Shown here piece by piece: positions 4,245 to 64,000 of a stretch of DNA of 64,000 bases; the first letter of the stretch is position 1; each line of letters starts with the position of its first letter. A program made the position numbers and the translations under genes. This stretch comes from an uncultured Candidatus Saccharibacteria bacterium. GTDB lineage: Bacteria; Patescibacteriota; Minisyncoccia; Phycocordibacterales; PCTT01. The notes beneath the pieces were generated by a model that was given only the letters and a program-made list of their open reading frames with translations, was not told the DNA's origin and ran no database searches. The stretch is from contig CAZMIM010000003.1 of assembly GCA_964566505.1 (NCBI GenBank), forward strand, positions 16,463 to 80,462, in the 5' to 3' direction.

Positions 4245-4319
4245 TGGCGACCCCACGGGGAATCGAACCCCGATTTCCACCGTGAAAGGGTGATGTCCTA
4301 GCCGTTAGACGATGGGGCC
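4245..4319 (-). tRNA. tRNA-Glu (anticodon UUC), CCA encoded
   Basis: Minus-strand read GGCCCCATCGTCTAACGGCTAGGACATCACCCTTTCACGGTGGAAATCGGGGTTCGATTCCCCGTGGGGTCGCCA. Acceptor 7 bp, anticodon stem TCACC/GGTGG, loop CTTTCAC giving anticodon TTC, T-loop TTCGATT. Confidence 0.85.
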
Positions 4320-14840: not shown

Positions 14841-17800
14841 ATGCAACAAAAAGTGTTTTCGCGGTACAAAAAACCGCTGACTTCGTATCCTAACTTTGTT
14901 GAAAACCAGCTCAGTTCATACACTGACCTTGTGGAGAAAGGTATTGCAGACCTTTTCCGAGAGTTTTCACCAATCGAGGACTATTCAGGGAAGAAATTCC
15001 TTTTCGAATTCAAAAGCATTGAGCTAGGAGAGCCAAAGTTTGATGAATTCTACGCAAAGCGTGAGCAACTTACATATGACGCACCGCTTCGCGCAAAGGT
15101 AAAGCTTACAAATAAGCAACTAGGGACAGAGAAAGAGCAAGAAATCTTTATTGCCGACTTCCCAATGCAGACAGACCACGGAACGTTCATTATCAATGGT
15201 ATTGAGCGTGTAATCGTGCCACAGCTTATCCGTTCATTCGGAGTACTTTTCAATATTAATGAAGTACGTGGAAAGCGAAAATTTGGTGCAAAGATTATTC
15301 CTGCACGGGGTGCATGGGTAGAGTTTGAGACCGATCACAACGACGCAATGTTTGTTCGTATCGATCGAAAGCGAAAATTCCCAATCACATCATTTTTGCG
15401 AATCTTTGGAGTAGATAGCGTGGAAGACATGAAGAAACTCTTCAAAGGAAATGACGATGTTCTAAAAACACTCGAGGCTTCACTCGAGCGAGACACTGCA
15501 GAATCAACAGAAGATGCATATGTAGAGGTGTACCGAAAACTTCGAGAAGGAGATATTGTGTCACCTGCAAACGCAAAAGAGTACATCGATGGACTCTTCA
15601 GCGAAGAACGATACGATCTATCAGAGGTAGGACGGTTCCGATTCAACCAACGATTTGGACGAGGAACAGAGAAGAAGGATCTCAACAAGCGAATCGTTGA
15701 TATTGAAGATATCAAGGAGATTATCGCCAACATCGTAAAGCTCAACAACACTCCAGGAGCAACAGAGGATGATATTGATCACCTTGGTTCACGACGAGTA
15801 CGGTTTGTAGGAGAGCTTCTAGAGCAAAGAATGCGTGTTGGTATGACACGAATGAAGCGAAACCTTCAGGACCGAATGTCTACTATCGACTCAGAGACAA
15901 CGCTCCCAATCCAATTCATTAACCCACGACCACTCCAAGCTGCAATCAAGGAGTTCTTTGCAACAAACCAACTTTCACAGTTCATGCAACAAGACAACAC
16001 TCTCCAAGAGATTGAGCACCTACGAACACTTTCAGCTCTTGGGCCAGGAGGTCTTACACGAGAGCGAGCTGGGTTTGAGGTACGAGACGTACACCCATCT
16101 CACTACGGACGAGTATGTCCAATCCACACACCAGAAGGTCCAAACATTGGACTTGTACTTCACCTTGCAACATATGCACGGGTAAATCATTTTGGAATGA
16201 TTGAGACACCATATGCGAGAGTAAAGAATGGAAAAGTTACAGACGAGATTGTGTACATGAACGCATACGAAGAAGAAGACAAAAAGATTGCACACGCAGC
16301 AACACCATATGATGACAGCGGTAAAATCACTGTTGATTTGGTAGAGGTGCGATACCAAGGTGCTCCACGAGTATTTCCTAAAAAGGATGTTGATTTTATT
16401 GATGTGGCTACAAATCAGGCCTTTTCAGTAGCAACATCTATGATTCCATTTCTTAACCACGACGACGCGGCTCGAGCACTCATGGGGTCAAACATGCAAA
16501 AACAAGCAACGCCATGTATCGTGCCAAGCGCACCATTGGTGGCAACAGGTATTGAAGAGCAAGCTGCTCGAGATACAGGACGACTTGTATATGCAAAGAA
16601 TCCAGGAAAGGTAACAGCAGTAGACGCACGAAAGGTTGTTGTAAAAAATACTAAAGGAAAAGACGACACATATAACCTTGTAAACTTTTCAAGAACAAAC
16701 GCAGCTAGCGCATTCCACCAACGACCAGTAGTAAATGTTGGAGACTCAGTAAAGAAAGGTGATCTACTTGCGGACACATCATCTTCAGATAAAGGACAAA
16801 CAGCGATTGGTCAAAACCTTCGCGTTGCCTTTATGACATGGAATGGAGCAAACTACGAGGACGCGATTATTATTTCACAGCGACTTGTAAAAGACTCAAC
16901 ACTCACATCTATTCATGTTGAGGAGTTTACTGTAAACGTTCGAGACACAAAGCTTGGGCCGGAAGTAACGACTCATGACATTCCAAACGTAGGAGAGAGC
17001 AAGCTCAAAAACCTAGACGAAGACGGAATTGTACGAATCGGAGCAGAGGTACGACCTGGAGATATTCTTGTTGGAAAGATTACTCCAAAGGGAGAGACAC
17101 AGCTCACTCCAGAGGAGCGACTTCTTCGTTCTATCTTTGGTGAAAAAGCACGAGACGTAAAAGACTCTTCACTTCGAATGGAGAACGGAAAGCAAGGACG
17201 TGTAATCGGTGTAAAGGTATTTTCTCGAGACAATGGAGACAACCTACAATCAGGAATCATCAAAAAGATTCATATTGAAGTTGCACAGCTTCGAGCTATC
17301 TCTGTAGGAGACAAGCTTGCTGGACGACACGGAAACAAGGGAGTTATCTCAACAATACTTCCTGAGGAGGACATGCCATACATGGAAGACGGAACTCCAA
17401 TCGATATTATTTTGACACCACTTGGAGTGCCAAGCCGAATGAACCTTGGACAGATTCTTGAGCTTCACCTTGGACTTGCAGCACACACACTCAACTATCA
17501 AGCAGTAGTACCACCATTTGTTGGTGCTCAAGATGTTGAGATTGCTGATGAGCTTGAAGAAGCTGGATACCCACGAGACGGAAAGGTAACACTATTTGAC
17601 GGACGAACAGGACGGGCATTTGATCAGCGAATCTCAATGGGGTACATGTACATGCTCAAGCTTCACCACATGGTAGAAGACAAGATTCACCAACGATCAA
17701 TTGGTCCATACTCACTCATTACTCAGCAACCTCTCGGAGGACGAGCACAAAACGGAGGACAACGATTTGGAGAAATGGAGGTGTGGGCACTATTGGGATA

Positions 17801-40578: not shown

Positions 40579-40694
40579 AGCGGGTTTTCTTGTACACATA
40601 GACATTTACCGTTTTTGGTTGTGTTATTTCTAAGTTACAGTATACTTACACACATTGCCTTTATTATCAGATTAAAACGGGGCAAGAAAATTAC

Positions 40695-40976
40695 ATGGAA
40701 GAAAGAAAAATGTTTTCAGGTGATTGGAGCTGTGCAAGCTGTGACACCAAAATTAGCGAGTTACCATTTGAGCCTCGTGATACAAGTAATCTCCTTTGTC
40801 GAGATTGTCATCGCGCACAGAGAGCTGACCGACCACGAAAAGAGCGCACTATGTTCCAAGGATCATGGACATGCGCAGGGTGTAACGGAGCTATCACTGA
40901 ACTCCCATTCCAACCTCGAGATGAGAGTAACCTTAAGTGTCGCGATTGTTTCAAGAAAGAAAAGGGATTTGTTTAA
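40695..40976 (+). CDS. tandem CxxC-x18-CxxC zinc-ribbon protein
   Basis: Two internal repeats of MF.G.W.CA.C...ITELPF.PRD.SNL.CRDC. The overlapping 136-aa ORF in another frame is taken as spurious. Confidence 0.6.
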   Translation: MEERKMFSGDWSCASCDTKISELPFEPRDTSNLLCRDCHRAQRADRPRKERTMFQGSWTCAGCNGAITELPFQPRDESNLKCRDCFKKEKGFV

Positions 40977-40988
40977 AGCAAAACAAAA

Positions 40989-41019
40989 AACCACTCATGT
41001 GAGTGGTTTTTTGTTTTTT
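40989..41019. terminator. bidirectional terminator AACCACTCA-TGT-GAGTGGTT with T-run
   Basis: A-run, 9-bp stem, T12 run; between convergent genes. Confidence 0.75.
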
Positions 41020-41032
41020 GAATAAGCGGATA

Positions 41033-42640: not shown

Positions 42641-42850
42641 TGTTTTAGAACTAAATTAATAAAATTTCAAACAAAACCAGAAATTAAACTAAAAAGCTCT
42701 AACCAAGTTGTTATTTGAGGTTGTATAATACGACGAACTATTTTAATAGTCAAGATTATTTATTTTGAACATTGGTTAAATATGTTGACTTGTTTTCTAT
42801 AGATATGTAGTATTTTGTTGAGTTTTTGTACCACCAAACTAAATACAATA

Positions 42851-43312
42851 ATGGAAAAGACCAAAATACAGTGGCGCAAGCCTGCTGAGAAGCTCATCAT
42901 GACATTGGTCGCGTTGTGGCTAATGACATGGTTCCCCGGGTATCTTGCGAACACTTCACTGGTTGAGTCTGCGGTAGAAGACGCTGTTGCTTGGGCAGCT
43001 CCTGAAGAGGAGATGGCTGAAGCTCGGGTAGAAATACCGCTTGCAGACAGCTCATTTTTGGGCCGTACCAGGCGTATGGCAGAGAATGCATGGAATGCTA
43101 CAAGCGAGACTCTTGAGAGCGGTGTAGAGGCTGTGCATAGGGGAACATACTCGGGTATGGAGATACTGCTTCGCGGAATTCTCAAGATGCTCGTTTTTGC
43201 AACAGCATTTGTGGGACTTCTGTTGGTTGCGTATCTCAATGCGCAAGAGTTCATCCCATCGTTTTTCTTGGACTTTCTATTTTCTATTTTCAAGAGAGCT
43301 TTTGTCGGCTAG
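42851..43312 (+). CDS. membrane protein, hypothetical
   Basis: Two TM helices flanking a soluble loop. Confidence 0.35.
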   Translation: MEKTKIQWRKPAEKLIMTLVALWLMTWFPGYLANTSLVESAVEDAVAWAAPEEEMAEARVEIPLADSSFLGRTRRMAENAWNATSETLESGVEAVHRGTYSGMEILLRGILKMLVFATAFVGLLLVAYLNAQEFIPSFFLDFLFSIFKRAFVG

Positions 43313-45908: not shown

Positions 45909-45991
45909 AATATATAGTATGTGTCAAGAATTAGGTTCTAACTCCCAATTGGGGTATAAAAAATAACCGCCTTGTTAAGCGATTATTTTCT

Positions 45992-46330
45992 TGGCTCCGC
46001 GGGCGGGATTCGAACCTGCAACCTACCGGTTACACGTATCCTAATATTTCTAAAAGGGGTGGACTATATCATCATCCTCTGAATATTCAGGAGGATGCAA
46101 GGCGCTTCCCAATGTTACGTAATCTGTTACGTAACAAGAGTACTCCCAAAAGGGATAGTCTCTGAACCTTCTTACCTAAATAGGTAAGCTTGGCTGCTGA
46201 TTACCCACGACTTTACGTTTGGGCTTCCAGACAATTCACCTTGTTTTCGACCTACATTTCTGTAGGAAGCTGCTATTTGAAACGAAGTTTCGTGTTACAG
46301 CCGGTTGCTCTACCATTGAGCTACCGCGGA
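45992..46330 (-). tRNA. tRNA gene interrupted by a group I intron in the anticodon loop (intron about 46033-46296); identity Asn(GUU) favoured, Thr(UGU) possible
   Basis: 5' exon TCCGCGGTAGCTCAATGGTAGAGCAACCGGCT(GT) and 3' exon (TAA)CCGGTAGGTTGCAGGTTCGAATCCCGCCCGCGGAGCCA form a full cloverleaf with discriminator G and encoded CCA. The intervening roughly 264 nt carries group I core elements R-like GTTCAGAGACTAT and S-like GATATAGTCC. Confidence 0.8.
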
Positions 46331-46548
46331 ATATTTTTTATCCGCGGTAGCTCAATGGCATCACGGAATATAAAAAGATCACGAACCAATAATGATTCGT
46401 GGGGAAATAGTATCAAAAAAAAGTGGATATTGGAAGCGTGATATAATAGGTACATAACAAGAGTATGTTTTTGGTTTTTGAAAATTTAAACATTTAAAAT
46501 TGTTTAGAAATTAAAAATTGAAAATTAGAAATTGGAACAAAGTGACTT

Positions 46549-47852: not shown

Positions 47853-48180
47853 GAATCGTGAGCTCTTACGAGGGCAGTTCAAGTTTTTGATGTAGCAAAC
47901 TTCGTGGGTGCTTACTTGAGTGTGGGTGTCGTGTGCACATGGCAGACGATCTTACACCACCTTTTTGTCCTTACGAGACTTGCTACTGTCTCCATGAGTT
48001 TAGTTGGGCAATCGCGTCTGTGTTACCAGCGCGGATGTGTGGCTAATCTCCGGGCATATGAGTATAATAGCATATACTTCATATTTGTCAATACTTTATA
48101 TATTGTCCAACGGCTCAACTTTTTGTATAGCCGCCTGCCTGCCGGCAGGCAGGTTGAAAAGGGCCTTATAGGGCCCTTTT

Positions 48181-48999
48181 TTAGTTTTTATATTCTTGCT
48201 CTTTTTTACCCTCAGGAATAACTTTTTTAATAACAAGTTCTCCGTCTTTCATTTCAGCCTCGGTAATAATGATTCGTTTATTGTTCTCATCAAAGAAATA
48301 TGCTCTAGGCCACTCACTATACGCTCTTATTTTAAGAAGGTTTTTATATGCGTCATCAGAGAGGTTTATCTCTGCATCCTCTTTTTTAATCTTTGTACAA
48401 AATGTTGCTTGTTCATGGTCTTGCTCCTGTGGCTCTAGCGCTCCTTCAACCCACTCTGTGATAGTTCTACATAATAGCTCTCCACCAGATTCTGCGAGCA
48501 ATGTACGAAGCTCGTTTGCACGCATTGGCCAATATGGAGTATCGACTACTTCTTGCTCAAGTATTGGACCGTGGTCCATTTTCTCATCCATAAGCATAAT
48601 AGTGACACCCGCAAACTCTTCGTCATTTAAAATCTGTGCCTCTATAGGAGAAGCTCCACGCCATTTTGGAAGTAGGGAAGGATGAACATTAAGTGTTTTG
48701 TGTTTTGGCACATAAAGCACTTCTTTTGGCATTATTTTTCCATATGATGCCACCACAGCTATGTCGGGACTATATTCGCTATATTTTGAAAGAAAATCTG
48801 CATCAAGAGATTCTGGTTGCCACACCTCTATATTATTTTTTTCTGCCCACACTTTTACATCAGGTGATTGAAGTTCAAGTCCACGACCGGCTTTTCTGTC
48901 GGGCATTGTTATTACAAGAAATGGCGCCAGGTCATATTCATGAAGTTTTTCTAAAATATTTACAGAGAAATCATCTGTTCCAAAAAATACTAATTTCAT
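48181..48999 (-). CDS. fmt: methionyl-tRNA formyltransferase
   Basis: MKLVFFGTDDFSV, PDRKAGRG, NVHPSLLPKWRGASPI (SLLP motif); C-terminal domain present. Confidence 0.88.
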   Translation of the reverse strand: MKLVFFGTDDFSVNILEKLHEYDLAPFLVITMPDRKAGRGLELQSPDVKVWAEKNNIEVWQPESLDADFLSKYSEYSPDIAVVASYGKIMPKEVLYVPKHKTLNVHPSLLPKWRGASPIEAQILNDEEFAGVTIMLMDEKMDHGPILEQEVVDTPYWPMRANELRTLLAESGGELLCRTITEWVEGALEPQEQDHEQATFCTKIKKEDAEINLSDDAYKNLLKIRAYSEWPRAYFFDENNKRIIITEAEMKDGELVIKKVIPEGKKEQEYKN

Positions 49000-50026: not shown

Positions 50027-50293
50027 TTATTGCTTTAGGAGCCAATTGAAAAGCGCTTGAGGGTTTTTGCCAGACTGAGCTTTTTTTATAAGGCTGTGCA
50101 TATCTTTTGGTGAATATTTTTTAAGCCGTCCGTTCCAGTATTTGTAACGCACTTTTGATTTTGAAGTTTCTTTTTTGTATGGCTCACCCATAAATGCCAT
50201 AACTGCATGTATCGCTTCTTGGCGTTCGTTCTCGATAGAGATTTTTCGCTTTTTCTCTAAATATTCTTCTGGGCTTGGTAGATCCATATACAT
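50027..50293 (-). CDS. hypothetical protein
   Basis: 88 aa, basic C-terminal half; no motif recognised. Confidence 0.3.
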   Translation of the reverse strand: MYMDLPSPEEYLEKKRKISIENERQEAIHAVMAFMGEPYKKETSKSKVRYKYWNGRLKKYSPKDMHSLIKKAQSGKNPQALFNWLLKQ

Positions 50294-50367
50294 ATTATAT
50301 AGACATAGAGTACAAGAAAAAACAACATATATTTGCGTTCCTTTTAAAACGCAATTACTATATATTC

Positions 50368-51381
50368 ATGTCTTTTTTCTCAAAGCAACTTGGAATTGAT
50401 CTTGGTACTGCAAACACACTCGTGTTTTCACCAGGAGAGGGAATAATACTAAATGAGCCATCAGTAGTGGCGGTATCGCTCGATGACAATAAAGTGGTGG
50501 CGGTAGGTCTTGAAGCAAAACAAATGGTTGGGCGAACCCCTGACAACATCGTGGCGTACAGGCCTATGAAAGATGGAGTTATAGCTGACTATCGTGTGAC
50601 CGAGGCTATGCTTTCGTACTATATAAATAAAGCACTTGGTAAGTGGAACTTTTTCAAACCAGAAGTGCTCGTGTCGGTGCCAGCGGGAGTAACATCTACA
50701 GAGCGACGTGCGGTGGTAGAGGCGGCCATAAAGGCGGGTGCAAAAAATGCATATATTGTAAAAGAGCCTATTCTTGCAGCTATTGGCGCTGGTGTACCTA
50801 TTCATGAAGCGCAGGGGCACATGATTGTTGATATTGGCGGAGGTACTACAGATGTTGCGGTGATTTCGCTTGGAGGGATTGTTGCATCAACATCTGTGAA
50901 ATGTGCTGGAACACGAGTGGATCATGCGATTATGGATTATGTAAAGAAAACATTTAACCTATCTATAGGAGAGAAAACAGCAGAGCATATAAAAATCACA
51001 GTAGGTTCTGCGGTGTCCATGGACGAAGAGCTTGTAATGAAAATAAAAGGACGAGACTTTGTTACAGGGCTTCCGCGTACTACAGAAATCACTACAAATG
51101 AAATAGTAAAAGCTATACGAAAAGAGCTTCGTGAAATGATAAAGGCCATAAAAGACGTGCTTCAAGACACTCCACCAGAGCTTGCATCAGATATTATCGA
51201 CATAGGAATTCTGATGACAGGAGGTTCTTCTCAACTTCGCCACTTCCCAGAGCTCGTATACAGACGAACAGGCGTGCGGGCACGACTCGCAAAAGATCCT
51301 CTTTATTGTGTAGTGAAGGGGACGGGTGTTGCTCTTGAGCATCTTGATACATACAAGAAGAGCATCGTAGCTAAACGGTAA
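50368..51381 (+). CDS. mreB: rod-shape determining protein MreB (copy 1)
   Basis: GIDLGTANTLVF, actin-fold phosphate motifs DIGGGTTD, GGSS.L; 337 aa. Confidence 0.9.
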   Translation: MSFFSKQLGIDLGTANTLVFSPGEGIILNEPSVVAVSLDDNKVVAVGLEAKQMVGRTPDNIVAYRPMKDGVIADYRVTEAMLSYYINKALGKWNFFKPEVLVSVPAGVTSTERRAVVEAAIKAGAKNAYIVKEPILAAIGAGVPIHEAQGHMIVDIGGGTTDVAVISLGGIVASTSVKCAGTRVDHAIMDYVKKTFNLSIGEKTAEHIKITVGSAVSMDEELVMKIKGRDFVTGLPRTTEITTNEIVKAIRKELREMIKAIKDVLQDTPPELASDIIDIGILMTGGSSQLRHFPELVYRRTGVRARLAKDPLYCVVKGTGVALEHLDTYKKSIVAKR

Positions 51382-52635: not shown

Positions 52636-53742
52636 ATGACAATTATTATATTTATTATAGTCCTCGCAGTTTTGATTATTGTTCACGAGCTAGGACACTT
52701 TCTATTTGCAAAAACGCGAGGTATTCGTGTAGATGAGTTTGGTCTTGGATTTCCTCCTCGTATTTGGGGTTACAAACCAAAAGGTGGTGAGACTCTTTAC
52801 TCACTAAACAGTATTCCTTTTGGAGGTTTTGTAAGAATATTTGGAGAAAATCCACTTGAGGCGGATGAGATTTCTGGTGCAGACAAAAAGCGAAGCTTTG
52901 CGCACAAGTCACGATGGACACAGGCGTCTGTTTTGTTTGGTGGAGTTTTGTTTAATTTTATTTTTGCATGGCTACTGTTTTCTCTTGGGTTTCTTTCAGG
53001 TTTACCATATGCAGAGACGGGGCGGTATGCAGATAGGGTAGAAGAGCCTCGAGTTCTTATAACAAATGTTTTAGCAGATTCACCGGCAGCACAAGTAGGA
53101 TTTTTGCCAGGTGATGAGATTCTATTTGTTGAATCAAAAACATCATCACTTCAAGACGGAGAGCTGTCAGTTCCAAATATTGTTGGCGCAATACAGAGAA
53201 GTCAGGGGAATCCACTTACTATTTTAGTACGACGCGGAGACACTACATTTAACGGCACACCAACACCCGAGGTGGGTATAGTGGGAGAAGAGTATGGTAT
53301 TGGTATCGCGATGACAAAAGCAGGTACACTGCAGTTGCCCGTACATCACGCTATTGCAGAAGGATTTCGACTTACGGTTTCAATGACGAAGGATGTAACA
53401 GTTGGTTTGTTTGGGGTTATTTATGATGCAGTAAGTGGTAATGGAGGACTTTCAAACCTTACAGGCCCTGTGGGGGTTGCTGGCTTGGTGGGCGATGCGT
53501 CACGGCTTGGCTTTGTACATCTTCTTTCATTCACTGCATTTATCTCTATTCACCTTGCGGTTCTAAACCTTATTCCGTTTCCAGCGCTTGATGGAGGACG
53601 ACTACTATTTTTGGCAATAGAAGGTGTTCGAAGAAGGCGAATTTCACCGAAAGTATTTGCGGTAGTAAATACAATTGGCTTTGCACTTCTGATGATGCTA
53701 CTCTTGGTGGTTACATATAAAGATATTGCGAGACTACTTTAA
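52636..53742 (+). CDS. rseP: RIP site-2 zinc metalloprotease RseP
   Basis: HELGHF (HExxH) in TM1, PDZ domain, and C-terminal LNLIPFPALDGG motif. Confidence 0.88.
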   Translation: MTIIIFIIVLAVLIIVHELGHFLFAKTRGIRVDEFGLGFPPRIWGYKPKGGETLYSLNSIPFGGFVRIFGENPLEADEISGADKKRSFAHKSRWTQASVLFGGVLFNFIFAWLLFSLGFLSGLPYAETGRYADRVEEPRVLITNVLADSPAAQVGFLPGDEILFVESKTSSLQDGELSVPNIVGAIQRSQGNPLTILVRRGDTTFNGTPTPEVGIVGEEYGIGIAMTKAGTLQLPVHHAIAEGFRLTVSMTKDVTVGLFGVIYDAVSGNGGLSNLTGPVGVAGLVGDASRLGFVHLLSFTAFISIHLAVLNLIPFPALDGGRLLFLAIEGVRRRRISPKVFAVVNTIGFALLMMLLLVVTYKDIARLL

Positions 53743-53744
53743 AT

Positions 53745-53812
53745 TAAAAACAGCTCATATATGAGCTGTTTTTTTATATAAAAAAGCGGAGGTCCAAGTT
53801 TTGGACCTCCGC
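53745..53812. terminator. two adjacent hairpins (ACAGCTCAT-ATA-TGAGCTGTT plus T-run; GCGGAGGTCCAA-GTTT-TGGACCTCCGC)
   Basis: Perfect stems at the boundary between the rseP operon and the GC-rich island. Confidence 0.7.
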
Positions 53813-53836
53813 GTGGCGGAATGTAGTTTTCCGAGG

Positions 53837-54163
53837 TTACGTAGGGTGTGTTCTGAAAGACCATCGTATTGGCGTAGGTCTCCAGAACACAATACCGACA
53901 ACTATCTGCTGAATTGCATTCCAGATACGTTGAAGCTGTTCCTGGGCTGTGATTCGTTTGTGCAGAGGCAGTAACGCTTGATAGTTTACAGCGCCGTCGA
54001 AACGGTCGTCCGTACCATTTGTTAATGCCGCATCAAAAGAGACCAGGTAGATCTCATACGTATCTGGATAGGCCGTGTCTTCCGACATGAGCCGTTCGTA
54101 TTCAGATAATAGGTCGATTCCTCCGTGAACCCCAGGTAGTAGCAGTGCGAGCGTCGCAAGCAT
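53837..54163 (-). CDS. hypothetical protein encoded in GC-rich island
   Basis: 108 aa ORF with GC-rich codon usage unlike the host genes; no motif. Confidence 0.3.
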   Translation of the reverse strand: MLATLALLLPGVHGGIDLLSEYERLMSEDTAYPDTYEIYLVSFDAALTNGTDDRFDGAVNYQALLPLHKRITAQEQLQRIWNAIQQIVVGIVFWRPTPIRWSFRTHPT

Positions 54164-54283
54164 ATACCGTGTGGGCTTTTGGTTTTCCGGTAAAAGAACA
54201 TTCGACCAAAAGACATCTGACGCAGTAATGCATCTCTTAGGGTCGGACTATCTAATATACAAAAAAGAATAAAATAATGCAAC

Positions 54284-54335
54284 AAAAAAGCGGGGCTCAG
54301 AACTGAAACTGTGTTCAGAACTGAACCCCGCAAGA
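54284..54335 (-). terminator. intrinsic terminator for the island secreted-protein gene
   Basis: GCGGGGTTCAGTTCTGAACACAGTTTCAGTTCTGAGCCCCGC hairpin plus TTTTTTGTT on the minus strand. Confidence 0.65.
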
Positions 54336-54407
54336 TTCATGTAATGCCCAATTACCCTAGACTTTCAAGGGGTGGTGGTTACGGAAGACTCGGCCGAGAA
54401 CCAGGAG

Positions 54408-55289
54408 CTACAGCAACTGGTTGAAGGCCGGGTCGTCGTCTGCGTGAACGGGTACCGTCGTAAGGGCCATCGCGTTCGCCATGCAAGAAGGCGTCATGAT
54501 ATGCGATCGGTCCTTGTCGTCCGCGGTTCGTGCCTGTTGGGTGGTCGTACGTGCAATAGCGTCCCCAATCGTGGAATTCGCGTAGTCCGTACCTACTGCA
54601 TCGTCGGTCAGCTGACCGGTCGGTGTCGTAATCTCCGAGACTGCATCCTGCTTCATGCCGGATTGCTGTCCCTGGGTCGTCATGGCTTGACCGCCAGAGT
54701 CGATGATCACCGCAGCGTAGTTACCCGTCGTTGGGTTGTCGATGTATTCCTGGATCGTAACGGGTTGTCGACAAGTGCTGACCACAAGCTCGTCGTTGTC
54801 CAGAGTACCACCGGCACTCTTGTCCATCGTGGCGCCCTCGAAGTTGCTTTTGGTGCCAATGAACTCTCCGCCGGAGAATTCGTCGACCTCGGCAACATGG
54901 GTGCTGTAGTCACGCACGCCGACCGAAGTCGTCGGGTGTACGATGGCGTCGGACGGAACTGGGTTGATGTCAAATACAGAAGTATTCAGAGTGAAGGATG
55001 CCGGCCAGTTGGTATGGGCGAAGCCCAACACCTCCATGGACGTATCGTCCATCTTTACCGCATGAACCGTAGCGACGAACTCGACCGACATGTTGAAGTC
55101 AGTCGTACCGGACATGACTACTCCCGATGATGCAGGAACGATGGCCGTAGACGTGGTATGAACCTCTCCGTTGGTGAACACCGTACCGGTGTCATAATCG
55201 AAGGTGTACGCAAGTGTGGTCGTGGGTCCGAATGCCGTCAGCATTAGGACCGCCAGACACGGAAGGATCAGCAGGGAGCGGATCTTCAT
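54408..55289 (-). CDS. Thr/Ser-rich secreted protein in GC-rich island (start at MKIRSLLILPCLAVL)
   Basis: Signal peptide, then a low-complexity T/S/G/D-rich sequence. GC-rich third positions contrast with neighbouring genes. Confidence 0.55.
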   Translation of the reverse strand: MKIRSLLILPCLAVLMLTAFGPTTTLAYTFDYDTGTVFTNGEVHTTSTAIVPASSGVVMSGTTDFNMSVEFVATVHAVKMDDTSMEVLGFAHTNWPASFTLNTSVFDINPVPSDAIVHPTTSVGVRDYSTHVAEVDEFSGGEFIGTKSNFEGATMDKSAGGTLDNDELVVSTCRQPVTIQEYIDNPTTGNYAAVIIDSGGQAMTTQGQQSGMKQDAVSEITTPTGQLTDDAVGTDYANSTIGDAIARTTTQQARTADDKDRSHIMTPSCMANAMALTTVPVHADDDPAFNQLL

Positions 55290-55503
55290 GTGATACACCA
55301 TTTGTTGGGTGAAAAGAACGTGGAATGGTACGCATACTTCTAGGAAAAACCGAGTTGTAGTACGTATTAGGGAAAATGATATCAAAAAATAGTATTTTGT
55401 CAAACAATATTTGTGGAGAGGTGTCAAGATTTGTAAAAATAGCCTCTTTTGACCCTGTATCTGCTTTCAAGTACAATTACCATACATTAAAGAGAGGCTA
55501 AAA

Positions 55504-56739
55504 ATGAGACAATCACAACTACTTACTAAAACACGAAAAGAAGCACCATCTGACGAGGTTTCAAAAAACGCTCAGTTACTTATTCAGGGCGGGTTTATTC
55601 ACAAAGAAATGGCAGGAGTATACGCACTTCTTCCACTTGGTGTTCGTGTGATAAAGAATATAGAAGAGATAATTCGCCAAGAAATGAATGCTGTTGGAGG
55701 GCAGGAGATTCAAATGACAGCACTTCAAGATCCAGAGCCATGGGAAAAGTCTGGTAGGTGGAGCAATGAAGTTATGGATGTTTGGTTTAAAACAGAGCTT
55801 CAGTCTGGTGGGTCTCTAGGGCTTGCACCTACTCATGAAGAGCCACTTACAAAGCTCCTCACAAACCATATAAACTCTTACAAAGACCTACCAGTGTATC
55901 CGTACCAGTTTCAAACGAAGTTTAGAAATGAGCTTCGTGCAAAGAGCGGTATTATGCGCGGACGAGAGTTTCTAATGAAAGACCTTTACTCATTCTCTTT
56001 GAACGAAGAGCAACACAATGATTTTTATGAAGAGATGAAAGTTGCTTATACAAATGTTTTTAATCGCCTAGGTCTTGGAGATATTACATATCTTACATAC
56101 GCATCAGGTGGCTCATTCTCACCATTTTCACATGAGTTTCAAACATTAACTGATGCTGGAGAGGATATTATTCATATTTGTAATCAGTGTAAGGTGGCTG
56201 TAAATGAGGAGATAATCGAGACACACAATACATGTCCAGAGTGTGATGCAAATGATTTGCAAAAAGAAAAAGCTGTTGAGGTTGGAAACATTTTCTCTCT
56301 TGGTACAAAATTCTCTGATGCACTTTCACTCACATACACAGACTCAGACGGAGCGCATAAAAAGGTTGTGATGGGGAGCTATGGAATTGGACTTGGGCGC
56401 GTAATGGGAACAGTGGTGGAGACTCTTTCTGATGATAATGGAATAGTGTGGCCAGAAGAGATTGCACCATTTAGAGTTCACCTTATTTCACTTGGACAAA
56501 ACGAAGAAGCAGAAAAGCTTTATGATGAGCTAACTTCAAGAGGGGTAGAAGTTCTATATGACGATAGGGATTGTTCTGCTGGAGAGAAGTTTTCTGACTC
56601 TGACCTGCTTGGTATTCCATGCAGAGTAGTTATAAGTGCAAAGACGCTTGAGAAAGATGCACTTGAAGTAAAGAGAAGAGACTCAAGCGATGCAGAGTTT
56701 ATTAAGGATACAGAACTATTTAACAGACTGAAGGCATGA
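55504..56739 (+). CDS. proS: proline--tRNA ligase, short form without INS editing domain
   Basis: N-terminal QLLTKTRKEAPSDEVSKNAQLLIQGGFIHKEMAGVYALLPLG, class II motifs, C-terminal anticodon-binding domain; a CNQC..CPEC insertion. Confidence 0.85.
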   Translation: MRQSQLLTKTRKEAPSDEVSKNAQLLIQGGFIHKEMAGVYALLPLGVRVIKNIEEIIRQEMNAVGGQEIQMTALQDPEPWEKSGRWSNEVMDVWFKTELQSGGSLGLAPTHEEPLTKLLTNHINSYKDLPVYPYQFQTKFRNELRAKSGIMRGREFLMKDLYSFSLNEEQHNDFYEEMKVAYTNVFNRLGLGDITYLTYASGGSFSPFSHEFQTLTDAGEDIIHICNQCKVAVNEEIIETHNTCPECDANDLQKEKAVEVGNIFSLGTKFSDALSLTYTDSDGAHKKVVMGSYGIGLGRVMGTVVETLSDDNGIVWPEEIAPFRVHLISLGQNEEAEKLYDELTSRGVEVLYDDRDCSAGEKFSDSDLLGIPCRVVISAKTLEKDALEVKRRDSSDAEFIKDTELFNRLKA

Positions 56740-57815
56740 TAGGAAGATATTATAGAGATTTGCATAAAAAAGTATCTCCGCTTCTTTCTAATGATATTGG
56801 TATTGATTTAGGAACAGCAAATACGCTTTTGTATGTGCGTGGAAAAGGAATTGTTCTCAACGAGCCCTCAGTTGTAGCACTTAACCAAAAGACAGGACAA
56901 ATCGTAGATATTGGTTTAGGAGCCAAAGAAATGCTTGGTCGTACACCTGGGCATATTGTTGCCATAAAACCTCTTGTTGATGGTGTGGTGTCTGACTATG
57001 AGGTAACAGAGGAGATGCTTGCATATCTTCTCAACCGTGCACAAGAGCATGTGTCTAGAAAAATTGTGGGCCCACGAGTGATTGTGGGTGTGCCTTCGGG
57101 TATCACCAATGTTGAGCGTCGCGCAGTACGAGACGCTGCAAAAGGCGCAGGAGCACGAGAGGTATACATAGTAGAGGAGCCAATGGCATCTGCTGTAGGT
57201 ATTCGTCTGCCTATTTATGAGCCAGTTGGTTCTATGGTGGTAGACATTGGTGGAGGTACTACAGACATTGCCATCATCTCACTCGGCGGTTTGGTAGTTT
57301 CAAAAAATCTTACTATCGCAGGAGATAGATTCAACAAAGACATCATTAGCTATGTGCGTGATGAGTTTAAAATTTTGATAGGGGAGAAAACTGCCGAGTA
57401 TCTAAAACTCACAACTACATCTATTACTGTTCCAGAAAAGCCAATCGAGACCATAGTGAAGGGAAGAGACTTGGTTACTGGTTTGCCACGAGAGATTACT
57501 GTTACTGATGCTGATATACGAGAAGCTCTATCACACTCCATTGATGCGCTCATTGAAGCGATTAAGGCGGTGATGGAAAGTGCACCACCTGAAATTCTTG
57601 GTGATGTTATGCAAAGAGGAATGTTTTTGGTAGGAGGTGGCTCACTGTTGCGCGGACTTTCTGAGTTTTTGACTGACTGGCTTAAGATACCGGTATATCA
57701 AAGTGATGAGCCACTAACTGCAGTTGCTCGTGGTACGGGTATTATTTTGGAGAATCTAGAGAATTATCAGGATGTTTTGATAGAAGACGATGAAGAGATT
57801 CCTATCCACAGCTAA
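56736..57815 (+). CDS. mreB: rod-shape determining protein MreB (copy 2, in mreBCD cluster)
   Basis: GIDLGTANTLLYV, DIGGGTTDIAI, LVGGGSLL. Its ATG overlaps the proS stop (ATGA). Confidence 0.88.
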   Translation: MIGRYYRDLHKKVSPLLSNDIGIDLGTANTLLYVRGKGIVLNEPSVVALNQKTGQIVDIGLGAKEMLGRTPGHIVAIKPLVDGVVSDYEVTEEMLAYLLNRAQEHVSRKIVGPRVIVGVPSGITNVERRAVRDAAKGAGAREVYIVEEPMASAVGIRLPIYEPVGSMVVDIGGGTTDIAIISLGGLVVSKNLTIAGDRFNKDIISYVRDEFKILIGEKTAEYLKLTTTSITVPEKPIETIVKGRDLVTGLPREITVTDADIREALSHSIDALIEAIKAVMESAPPEILGDVMQRGMFLVGGGSLLRGLSEFLTDWLKIPVYQSDEPLTAVARGTGIILENLENYQDVLIEDDEEIPIHS

Positions 57816-63267: not shown

Positions 63268-63296
63268 TTGACTTTTAGCTTTAAATATGGTAATAA
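63268..63296 (+). promoter_or_regulatory. putative sigma-70 promoter TTGACT-17-TAATAA for the downstream secreted-protein gene
   Basis: Consensus-like -35 and AT-rich -10 with 17-nt spacing, about 60 nt before the ATG at 63359. Confidence 0.35.
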
Positions 63297-63358
63297 TAGC
63301 TCCGGTAATCAATGAACTTTTCAAAACAAATGCCCCATATGGGGCGGAGTAAATACTC

Positions 63359-64000
63359 ATGAAACGCTTTATTGCGTCTTTCGTGCTTCTGCTCCTGTTC
63401 TCTACAGGGAGTGCGTTGGGGCAGAACAAGCAGGCAAAGATCGTGTCTCCGGCGCAAGCCGATGAGATTGATCTGACTGCAAACGGAAAAGTTTTCTTCG
63501 TCGATGCTGAGCCTGTGGTTTGGCGAGAAGAGGACTACGGTATTCGTGTGTTTTTTGGCGATGGCTCTGAGCTTTTCGTTAAAACGCAAACGGTTCTTGC
63601 ATCCGGAAAATCTGGATGTGGAGCACTCCCTGATCCTTATATCACGTTTTCACCAGCTACGGCTGTGTCGAGTTCGCGGTATGAGTTTTCACAGGATATC
63701 GGATCTGTACAGCGTGGTAACGGTGACTTCACCGTAACTGCGTATCGGTATACGTCTGCTACCACAACGGTGGCAGAAAGTCCGTCTGTTGTGTACTTCC
63801 AGTATAGTACGGCTTCGGCCGGCACTAGATTGGTTGCTATTGCAAACTACACAGATCCTTCTGTTGCTGGTTCACAGTGTCGTGCAACACAAACGACCCT
63901 GTATTCCAACATTCAGAACGGTTCTGGTGGTGGAAACACAGCACCGGTATTCACCAGTACTCCACCTAATGCCAACTTGGATGTAGGAGATTCTTACTCC
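63359..64000 (+). CDS. secreted Thr/Ser-rich protein, partial (continues past window end)
   Basis: ATG at 63359, signal peptide MKRFIASFVLLLLFSTGSALG. Frame stays open for 214 codons to the window end. GC-richer than the host genes, and not in the ORF track because there is no stop codon. Confidence 0.5.
   Translation, partial: MKRFIASFVLLLLFSTGSALGQNKQAKIVSPAQADEIDLTANGKVFFVDAEPVVWREEDYGIRVFFGDGSELFVKTQTVLASGKSGCGALPDPYITFSPATAVSSSRYEFSQDIGSVQRGNGDFTVTAYRYTSATTTVAESPSVVYFQYSTASAGTRLVAIANYTDPSVAGSQCRATQTTLYSNIQNGSGGGNTAPVFTSTPPNANLDVGDSYS

Follow-up and report, generated by a model that had tools for sequence, protein, structure and literature searches.

The DNA analysed here, referred to as the window, comprises 64,000 nucleotides (positions 16,463–80,462, forward strand) of contig CAZMIM010000003.1 in assembly GCA_964566505.1, which derives from an uncultured Candidatus Saccharibacteria bacterium. 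The locus of interest lies between rseP and proS, with frr, mreB, mreC and PBP2 also among the flanking genes, and the neighbouring genes between 48 and 63 kb all have housekeeping roles. The rseP–proS gap contains a short stretch, hereafter the islet, with two minus-strand open reading frames (ORFs), p293 and orf108, accompanied by terminators and promoter-like sites (Table 1). An initial annotation of this DNA had described a protein of ∼294 aa and an ORF of 108 aa at this place; both frames were present, the former with a length of 293 aa.

Table 1. Coordinates of the features of the rseP–proS gap in the window.
Feature	Position	Strand	Details
rseP terminator, perfect 14+14 nt palindrome	53746–53773		−14.5 kcal/mol, z −6.4
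Intrinsic terminator at the end of minus-strand transcription in the islet	53780–53812	−	−23.3 kcal/mol, z −7.1
orf108, 108-aa orphan ORF	53837–54163	−	GC 0.489, GC3 0.48
p293 intrinsic terminator	54284–54331	−	Hairpin 54290–54331 and U6 tract; −29.4 kcal/mol, z −6.6
p293 CDS	54408–55289	−	293 aa and stop; GC 0.567, GC3 0.69
Signal-peptide-like N-terminus of p293, codons 1–27	55209–55289	−	Hydropathy and rule-based inspection
p293 sigma-70-like promoter candidate	55376–55403	−	TTGACA, 16-nt spacer, TG-n-TATCAT; 11/12 matches
proS promoter-like site	55449–55477	+	TTGACC, 17-nt spacer, TACAAT; promoter scan

The palindrome is located directly past the rseP stop codon (53742) and marks the native left boundary; the independent contig L082 likewise carries it at its end. 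The terminator that follows is made up of a 12-bp GC-rich stem (53786–53812) and a T6 tract (53780–53785). The hairpin of the p293 terminator has the sequence GCGGGGUUCAG...CUGAGCCCCGC, and none of 200 shuffled sequences was as stable. On the other side of the gap, the proS promoter-like site diverges from the p293 promoter candidate and marks the native right boundary. The promoter scan was a consensus match only, which returned three sites in the region compared with the 2.7 expected from shuffles. The spacer shared by p293 and proS (55290–55503, 214 bp) is AT-rich like the host, and composition sets no right-hand limit of the imported DNA. The features therefore agree with the initial annotation, in which the island was bounded by terminators and the divergent proS promoter region and carried a strong terminator of its own. 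No RNA family was detected by Rfam over 53600–55600.

Base composition and codon usage

The GC content of the whole window is 40.4%, and the background 900-bp windows had a mean GC of 0.401 with a standard deviation of 0.027 and a maximum of 0.464. The 900-bp window starting at 54401 reached 0.567, which is more than six standard deviations over this background. A fit with two change-points delimited a GC-rich block at 54366–55280 (GC 0.572 vs. 0.413 outside), and its limits coincide near-exactly with the p293 coding sequence. The initial annotation had placed a GC-rich island at 53811–55300. This stands for the block over p293, whereas the remainder of that interval (53813–54365) has a GC of only ∼0.47, and the orf108 region is intermediate in composition (0.47–0.49).

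The switch is also seen in the codon usage of p293. Its GC3 of 0.69 compares with a native mean of 0.329 (standard deviation 0.063), and its log-likelihood under native codon usage corresponds to a z of −4.3; no other gene in the 64 kb came near p293 in codon usage or GC3 deviation. Both the abrupt change in composition and codon usage and the GC-rich third codon positions unlike the host, as originally proposed, were thus borne out by the quantitative analysis. p293 draws on C-ending codons that are hardly used in native genes, as shown by the fractions of ACC (0.33 vs. 0.05 in native genes), GCC (0.32 vs. 0.06), GTC (0.31 vs. 0.02), GGC (0.33 vs. 0.07), TCC (0.36 vs. 0.01) and TTC (0.92 vs. 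0.27). In all codon families examined, the synonymous preference was the reverse of that in native genes. The Shine-Dalgarno sequence was dropped as a marker of foreignness because the native genes here mostly lack one too.

The p293 gene is a real coding frame, since the length of its open frame (290 codons) was reached in only one of 2000 shuffles and the spread of its GC over the codon positions (0.224) lies above all 2000, the highest of which gave 0.153. A 252-aa ORF on the opposite strand (54372–55130, plus strand) was rejected as a shadow ORF, with positional GC values of 0.69/0.47/0.54 and no family match. The coding status of orf108 is weakly supported, with 25 of 2000 shuffles matching its length and 31 of 2000 its codon periodicity. 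Neither the native genome nor any of the related loci matches it in codon usage; it may be non-coding, a second gene of the cargo, or an older gap gene specific to the lineage.

The p293 and orf108 products

The p293 translation begins MKIRSLLILPCLAVLMLTAFG. A word-indexed search of 5.8 billion proteins returned p293 itself only, and an exhaustive phmmer search of 1.84 billion representative proteins gave no credible relative. The single other match in the latter search, P0002, is a perfect tandem-repeat protein of 1478 aa whose E-value of 1.7e-4 arose from 18 repeated weak matches, and it was discarded as spurious. Searches of Pfam, PHROGs, NCBIfam, PADLOC and the PDB sequences yielded sub-threshold noise only. 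For orf108, the 5.8 billion proteins likewise contained no match other than itself, and Pfam, PHROGs, NCBIfam and PADLOC gave none. The single-sequence AlphaFold2 models of p293 (pLDDT 33.1, uninformative) and orf108 (pLDDT 42.6) were too poor for a fold search.

The N-terminus of p293 is signal-peptide-like by hydropathy, as the initial annotation had proposed. It consists of an n-region (MKIR), an h-region (SLLILPCLAVLMLTAF) and a c-region (GPTTTLA), and the Kyte-Doolittle maximum over 19 residues is 2.04 at residues 3–21. No further membrane segment was found, the corresponding maximum outside residues 1–30 being 0.93. Under the SPase I criteria of a positive n-region, a hydrophobic h-region of 10–16 residues and small residues at −3/−1, TLA|Y is a possible cleavage site by rule-based inspection only. 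No canonical lipobox ([LVI][ASTVI][GAS]C) is present at the end of the h-region of p293, and the sole candidate, L-I-L-P-C, has Pro at −1. By these hydropathy rules, p293 would be a substrate of Sec export. Cleavage of the signal peptide around Ala27/Tyr28 would then yield a ∼28-kDa acidic and Thr-rich protein, located outside the cell or on its surface.

The product is acidic (pI ∼4.1) and contains 14.7% Thr, 22% Thr+Ser and 4% Lys/Arg. It had been described as having a long low-complexity body. This description did not hold, as the protein is compositionally biased and its sequence complexity is normal: the mean 25-residue entropy is 3.40 vs. 3.43–3.57 in native proteins, only one low-complexity segment of 14 residues (244–257) was found, and self-BLAST revealed no internal repeats. 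In an episymbiotic monoderm Patescibacterium, the cell surface would be the most plausible place for p293 to act, and it may, for example, mediate attachment or vary as a surface antigen.

A second gene, partial and starting at 63359, had been grouped with p293 in a family of imported surface proteins. The two are unrelated, as tblastn of p293 against the whole window detected only itself and nothing at 63359–63997. The partial gene has a GC of 0.54 and 0.50 at codon positions 1 and 2, a GC3 of 0.44 and a codon-usage z of −1.9; its GC excess is mostly driven by amino-acid content. It is likewise without relatives.

Origin of the islet

Comparison with related genomes revealed how the junction varies. 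In 66 related Patescibacteria loci, rseP adjoins proS and the order frr-rseP-proS-mreB is kept, while the rseP–proS gaps measure 6–1221 bp (median ∼350); the gap of 1761 bp described here is the longest seen. These relatives are distant, the nearest ProS being 65% identical in both the genome and the metagenome collections, and none of the 66 loci carries a relative of p293 or orf108 at the junction. Gaps longer than 250 bp contain 23 unrelated ORF clusters across 34 loci. The rseP–proS junction is a spot that varies between lineages of the group. In the 36 gaps of relatives that are over 250 bp long, the gap GC never exceeded the locus GC by more than 0.076.

Horizontal acquisition, which the initial annotation had suggested, is the best explanation because of the GC3 of p293 relative to the native genes, its use of C-ending codons that native genes avoid and its absence from the junction in the 66 loci. 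The word "recent" in that annotation is not supported, since the collections offer no close relative of this genome against which to date the event. The islet is probably a single-gene cassette acquired in this way by a Patescibacteria (Paceibacteria-like) chromosome from an unsampled donor of ∼53–58% GC, and it would encode a Sec-exported protein. The case for transfer rests on composition and on synteny with distant relatives, since no donor or homologue was found. An islet of ∼1.0–1.7 kb would have been placed in the rseP–proS junction, and its core would be a self-contained minus-strand unit that runs from a sigma-70-like promoter through an untranslated leader of ∼80 nt and the 293 codons of p293 to a strong intrinsic terminator. 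The codon usage of the bacterial donor would have been retained in p293. This usage matches that of GC-rich relatives no worse than their own genes do (e.g., z −0.4 for locus L010, 56.6% GC) and is compatible with, not specific to, GC-rich Patescibacteria. As the comparators were Patescibacteria loci only, the donor can be assigned to a GC class (∼53–58%) only. With no integrase, tRNA target or flanking repeats at the islet, we infer that the DNA may have entered by uptake, followed by illegitimate or homology-facilitated recombination. Competence and pili have been proposed as a transfer route in Patescibacteria (PMC12455944).

Alternatively, p293 could be a native, fast-evolving, lineage-specific gene whose composition reflects its amino-acid content or mutation or selection acting locally. 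In favour of this, the composition of the promoter region resembles that of the host, the rseP–proS gap holds lineage-specific orphan ORFs in many relatives, and orphan secreted proteins are common in the genome, the gene at 63359 being one example. However, an amino-acid bias cannot lift GC3 to 0.69, the synonymous choice is inverted, no other gene in the 64 kb approaches p293, and the relatives' gaps do not depart from their loci to this extent. We consider a native origin unlikely.

The layout of the islet also recalls phage morons, which are autonomous promoter-gene-terminator units inserted between conserved genes. As in these units, one gene of deviating composition lies between conserved genes, flanked by a promoter-like site and a strong terminator of its own; prophages have been reported in Patescibacteria (PMC12455944). 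The islet could then be a remnant or cargo of a mobile element, left after the loss of that element. The surroundings argue against this, as the islet sits in a chromosomal housekeeping cluster with no phage genes nearby and no integrase or transposase among the neighbours from 48 to 63 kb. Its edges carry no target-site duplications, inverted repeats or direct repeats beyond short chance matches. ARAGORN placed no tRNA or tmRNA beside it and detected only a tRNA-Glu at 4245–4319 in the window; a second, intron-split tRNA near 46.0–46.3 kb is likewise distant from the islet. IMG/VR, INPHARED and PLSDB yielded no match to the DNA or at the protein level, and PHROGs gave no match. No part of 53743–55503 recurs elsewhere in the window, and there is no template/variable repeat pair near a reverse transcriptase of the kind that marks a diversity-generating retroelement. 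Such an origin is improbable.

A more far-reaching reading would make p293 the first representative to be sampled of a novel family of effectors that ultra-small episymbionts export. It could be a host-attachment or antagonistic surface factor, possibly with orf108 as its partner or immunity protein, and the minimal promoter-gene-terminator cassette would be exchanged at a hot spot of recombination in the rseP–proS junction. We hold this to be quite improbable.

An assembly artefact, in which GC-rich contaminant DNA was falsely joined into the contig, had to be weighed because the genome is metagenome-assembled. Among NCBI records, the exact p293 protein occurs on one contig only, of 83,441 bp. 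Of the independent Logan assemblies, contig L082 (run SRR15635857) stops at 53792, the left edge of the islet, whereas contig L081 (run SRR15635848; a single-run, k-mer assembly) reproduces 53699–54726 of the window with 100% identity over 1028 bp. The latter spans the 3′ end of rseP, both terminators, orf108 and the 3′ end of p293. Chimerism is thus unlikely, at least for the left junction; the match does not extend to the right junction, and independent support is confined to the left one. An artefact would moreover need two false joins 1.5 kb apart within a syntenic housekeeping block. The boundaries contain no repeat of a length that could have misled a de Bruijn assembler, the GC-rich block ends near-exactly at the start and stop codons of p293, and the promoter and terminators are well formed. 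Taken over the whole islet, we judge contamination very unlikely.

Toxin/immunity pairs are typically mobile and fast-evolving, and a secreted protein of ∼290 aa followed by a cytoplasmic-looking ORF of ∼110 aa in the same orientation, both orphans of atypical composition, could suggest a toxin or bacteriocin acquired jointly with its immunity protein as a competition module; with searches of Pfam, NCBIfam and PADLOC revealing neither a toxin nor an immunity domain, a strong terminator between the two ORFs and a weakly supported orf108 that is unlike p293 in composition, this is highly improbable.

Comparison with known systems and significance

If the islet was acquired horizontally, its closest counterparts are the transferred genes and small islands of groundwater Patescibacteria. 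Surveys involving Patescibacteria have described over 100 genomic islands and 124 transfers of individual genes, mostly within the phylum (PMC12455944). The islet resembles these in its phylum, its atypical composition, its cargo without an assigned function, the lack of obvious mobility genes and the plausibility of DNA uptake through competence or pili. It differs in having no identifiable donor or homologue, in comprising one or two genes, which is far under the usual island size, and in having been detected by composition and synteny rather than by phylogenetic incongruence.

ORFan genes are enriched in prokaryotic genomic islands according to Hsiao et al. (2005), as cited within PMC12455944, and p293 is similarly foreign in composition with no detectable homologue. 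Classical islands measure ∼10 kb or more and hold multiple cargo genes, whereas the inserted stretch is at most 1761 bp with one or two ORFs; as a single-gene insertion, it also differs from them in lacking tRNA adjacency, an integrase and direct repeats. At the protein level, p293 shares with the Thr/Ser-rich secreted or wall-associated proteins of monoderms a high Thr+Ser content, an acidic pI and few Lys/Arg residues, and its signal-peptide-like N-terminus may be a further likeness. Unlike these, it has no repeats, low-complexity tracts, LPXTG, lipobox, S-layer or cell-wall-binding motif, and it shows no sequence similarity to any of these families.

The acquisition of such an islet is an ordinary kind of event, and current understanding is unchanged, as both horizontal transfer and orphan genes have ample precedent in the phylum. 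If the proposed origin is true, the locus would offer a clean, minimal example of a streamlined Patescibacterium gaining a new exported protein through one foreign transcription unit, inserted where many relatives also carry lineage-specific genes. The locus would flag the rseP–proS junction as a variable spot, and p293 would be a one-member protein family that joins the many CPR surface proteins without a known function.

Base composition and codon usage of the islet

In sliding 900-bp windows, the background GC content outside the region was 0.401 (sd 0.027, maximum 0.464; 40.4% GC over the entire 64 kb), and the peak, 0.567, fell in the window that begins at 54401. Fitting two change points by maximum likelihood over 52.5–56.5 kb delimited a GC-rich block at 54366–55280 (0.572 inside vs 0.413 outside), the limits of which coincide with a single minus-strand ORF of 293 aa, p293, starting MKIRSLLILPCLAVLMLTAFG. 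The compositional island is real and sharply defined at this block, but the initial annotation had extended it over 53.8–55.3 kb, and the remainder of that interval (53813–54365) had intermediate GC (∼0.47). The 214-bp spacer before proS (55290–55503) was AT-rich (GC ∼0.35). The foreign-looking stretch between rseP and proS, which holds p293 and a 108-aa ORF (orf108), is referred to as the islet.

When the block was shuffled 2000 times, the 290-codon open frame was equalled once, and the positional GC spread of p293 (0.224) exceeded that of every shuffle (maximum 0.153). A 252-aa ORF on the opposite strand was rejected, as it displayed a shadow-frame pattern and matched no family.

Positional GC in p293 was 0.54/0.47/0.69, which upheld the atypical third positions noted initially: native GC3 was 0.329 ± 0.063 (61 non-overlapping ORFs), values in the other 28 ORFs listed, all outside the interval, were 0.24–0.37, and orf108 lay at 0.48. 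The codon log-likelihood of p293 under native usage gave z = -4.3. The contrast is qualitative: C-ending codons nearly absent from the native four-fold families (ACC 0.05, GCC 0.06, GTC 0.02, GGC 0.07, TCC 0.01) were used at 0.31–0.36 in p293, with TTC at 0.92 vs 0.27 and ATC at 0.71 vs 0.21. Window-wide, native usage strongly favoured ACA and TCA, and most native genes had no upstream Shine-Dalgarno sequence. Four short ORFs with z < -2 and raised GC3 (0.43–0.56) are probably spurious or shadow frames, not more foreign genes.

Features of the islet, its surroundings and other parts of the window
Feature	Position	Strand	Details
Upstream neighbours			mreB-like, holB-like, frr, rseP
rseP	3' end 53742		Peptidase_M50 + PDZ family match
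Perfect 28-nt palindrome	53746–53773		directly after rseP
Hairpin + T6 tract	53786–53812	-	-23.3 kcal/mol; closes minus-strand transcription
orf108	53837–54163	-	GC 0.489; between two minus-strand terminators
Hairpin + U6 tract	∼75 nt past p293 stop	-	-29.4 kcal/mol, z -6.6
p293	54408–55289	-	293 aa
Sigma-70-like site	55403–55376	-	TTGACA-16-TGnTATCAT, upstream of p293; consensus match only
Downstream neighbours			proS, mreB, mreC, PBP2, greA, class II aaRS
MreB/Mbl paralogues	50275–51381; 56736–57815	+; +	
Intron-split tRNA gene	within 45990–46362	-	exons ∼46330–46296 and 46039–45990
Group I intron	46040–46295	-	RF00028, 80.9 bits
Short ORFs	40615–41025; 42760–43293; 47904–48221; 63281–63589	+; -; +; -	
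Second T/S-rich gene	63359–63997	+	partial, cut by window end

Predicted proteins of the islet

At the N-terminus of p293, a basic n-region is followed by a hydrophobic core of 16 residues (KD19 2.04), and cleavage could occur between TLA and Y; this resembles the signal peptide originally proposed. No other hydrophobic segment (maximum 0.93) and no lipobox were found. The mature part is ∼28 kDa with a pI of 4.1, Thr makes up 14.7% (native 5.7 ± 1.6%) and Lys+Arg 4%. The body had been described as long and low in complexity, a reading contradicted by normal local complexity, a single short patch (244–257) and no repeats. Given these features, p293 is probably a Sec-exported, acidic, Thr-rich protein, and it may act at the cell surface, considering this localisation and the episymbiotic lifestyle of the phylum.

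No credible relative was detected among 5.8 billion clustered proteins or in an exhaustive scan of 1.84 billion representatives, and Pfam, PHROGs, NCBIfam, PADLOC and PDB gave no match. The sole hit besides p293 itself, a 1478-aa tandem-repeat protein (P0002), was rejected as a repeat artefact. AlphaFold2 without an alignment was uninformative (pLDDT 33). The strong terminator initially attributed to the island was confirmed. No Rfam family was found in the islet region.

The 108-aa ORF was present as first described, but with intermediate GC and modest coding support, its length being equalled in 25 and its periodicity in 31 of 2000 shuffles. It had no relatives in the protein search and no match in Pfam, PHROGs, NCBIfam or PADLOC, its structure model was poor, and its codon usage was unlike that of the host and of every related locus. 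It could be a further cargo gene, an older gene of the gap, or non-coding sequence.

The gene at 63359 had been grouped with p293 in a family of imported surface proteins, which the data did not support. It has a signal-like start (MKRFIASFVLLLLFSTGSALG) and is T/S-rich (21%), but showed no similarity to p293 and no family match. The protein search returned no homologue; its own full-length copy was likewise not returned, though other proteins of the contig are in the collection. Its GC (0.49) was raised chiefly at the first and second codon positions (0.54, 0.50), with GC3 at 0.44 and codon z at -1.9; the excess reflects amino-acid bias, with no clear foreign signature.

The rseP–proS junction

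The islet is flanked entirely by housekeeping genes. Two MreB/Mbl paralogues <6 kb apart bracket frr-rseP-islet-proS. Elsewhere, a tRNA gene not detected by ARAGORN (acceptor stem TCCGCGG/CCGCGGA, CCA encoded) is split within its anticodon loop by a group I intron. Spliced in silico, the tRNA reads as Tyr(GTA) or Val according to where the splice points are set, and just upstream its 5' end is repeated as a perfect inverted copy of 18 nt.

ProS relatives, sought in 185,579 species genomes and JGI metagenomes, were all Patescibacteria/CPR (Paceibacteria, Nomurabacteria, Kaiserbacteria and others). Because the nearest are ≤65% identical, the host is taken as a deep branch of this group that has otherwise not been sampled; a single NCBI contig of 83,441 bp is the one record with its exact proteins.

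Directly upstream of proS, rseP was found on the same strand in 66 of 160 related loci, with gaps of 6–1221 bp (median ∼350); the 1761 bp gap here is the longest. None of the 66 encoded a p293- or orf108-like product, even at E = 10. Gaps >250 bp carried small ORFs in 34 loci, forming 23 unrelated clusters, several multi-member ones being one contig present in both collections. Several clusters across Paceibacteria-like genomes are membrane proteins. Gap GC exceeded locus GC by ≤0.076 in relatives, and the p293 block stood +0.17 over background. The junction is therefore a place where lineage-specific genes recur; it varies across Paceibacteria-like genomes, and the p293 islet is its compositionally exceptional occupant.

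An assembly chimera would require a pair of false joins, 1.5 kb from each other, with no repeats at the boundaries and coinciding exactly with a start and a stop codon. A Logan single-run contig (L081, SRR15635848, 1028 bp) matched 53699–54726 at 100% identity. It runs from the 3' end of native rseP through both terminators and orf108 into p293, of which it covers the final 319 nt. This independent support covers the left junction only, not the right. Another run (SRR15635857) gave a contig, L082, with frr-rseP that stops at 53792, within the second hairpin at the left edge of the islet, where L081 reads through; low coverage, population heterogeneity or a polymorphic insertion could be the cause.

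Origin of the islet

No integrase, transposase, nearby tRNA, direct repeats or second copies were found, and searches of phage and plasmid collections gave no match. The codon tables of GC-rich relatives (0.53–0.58 GC) fitted p293 roughly as they fit the genes of those relatives (z -0.4 for locus L010, for example), and the fit worsened with falling locus GC; the donor GC class is therefore about 53–58%. A GC-rich Patescibacterium is a permissible rather than a demonstrated donor; that the donor was a bacterium is suggested by the promoter of bacterial type, the signal peptide and the intrinsic terminator.

In published work, over 100 genomic islands and 124 individual transfers involving Patescibacteria have been described, mostly within the phylum, with competence and pili as a proposed route (PMC12455944). 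The most economical mechanism would be DNA uptake followed by recombination into a permissive intergenic site. Given the atypical codon usage of p293 and its absence from rseP–proS in relatives, the islet is best explained, as initially suggested, by horizontal acquisition of an orphan gene cassette for an exported protein in a variable Patescibacteria junction, a further case of a familiar phenomenon.
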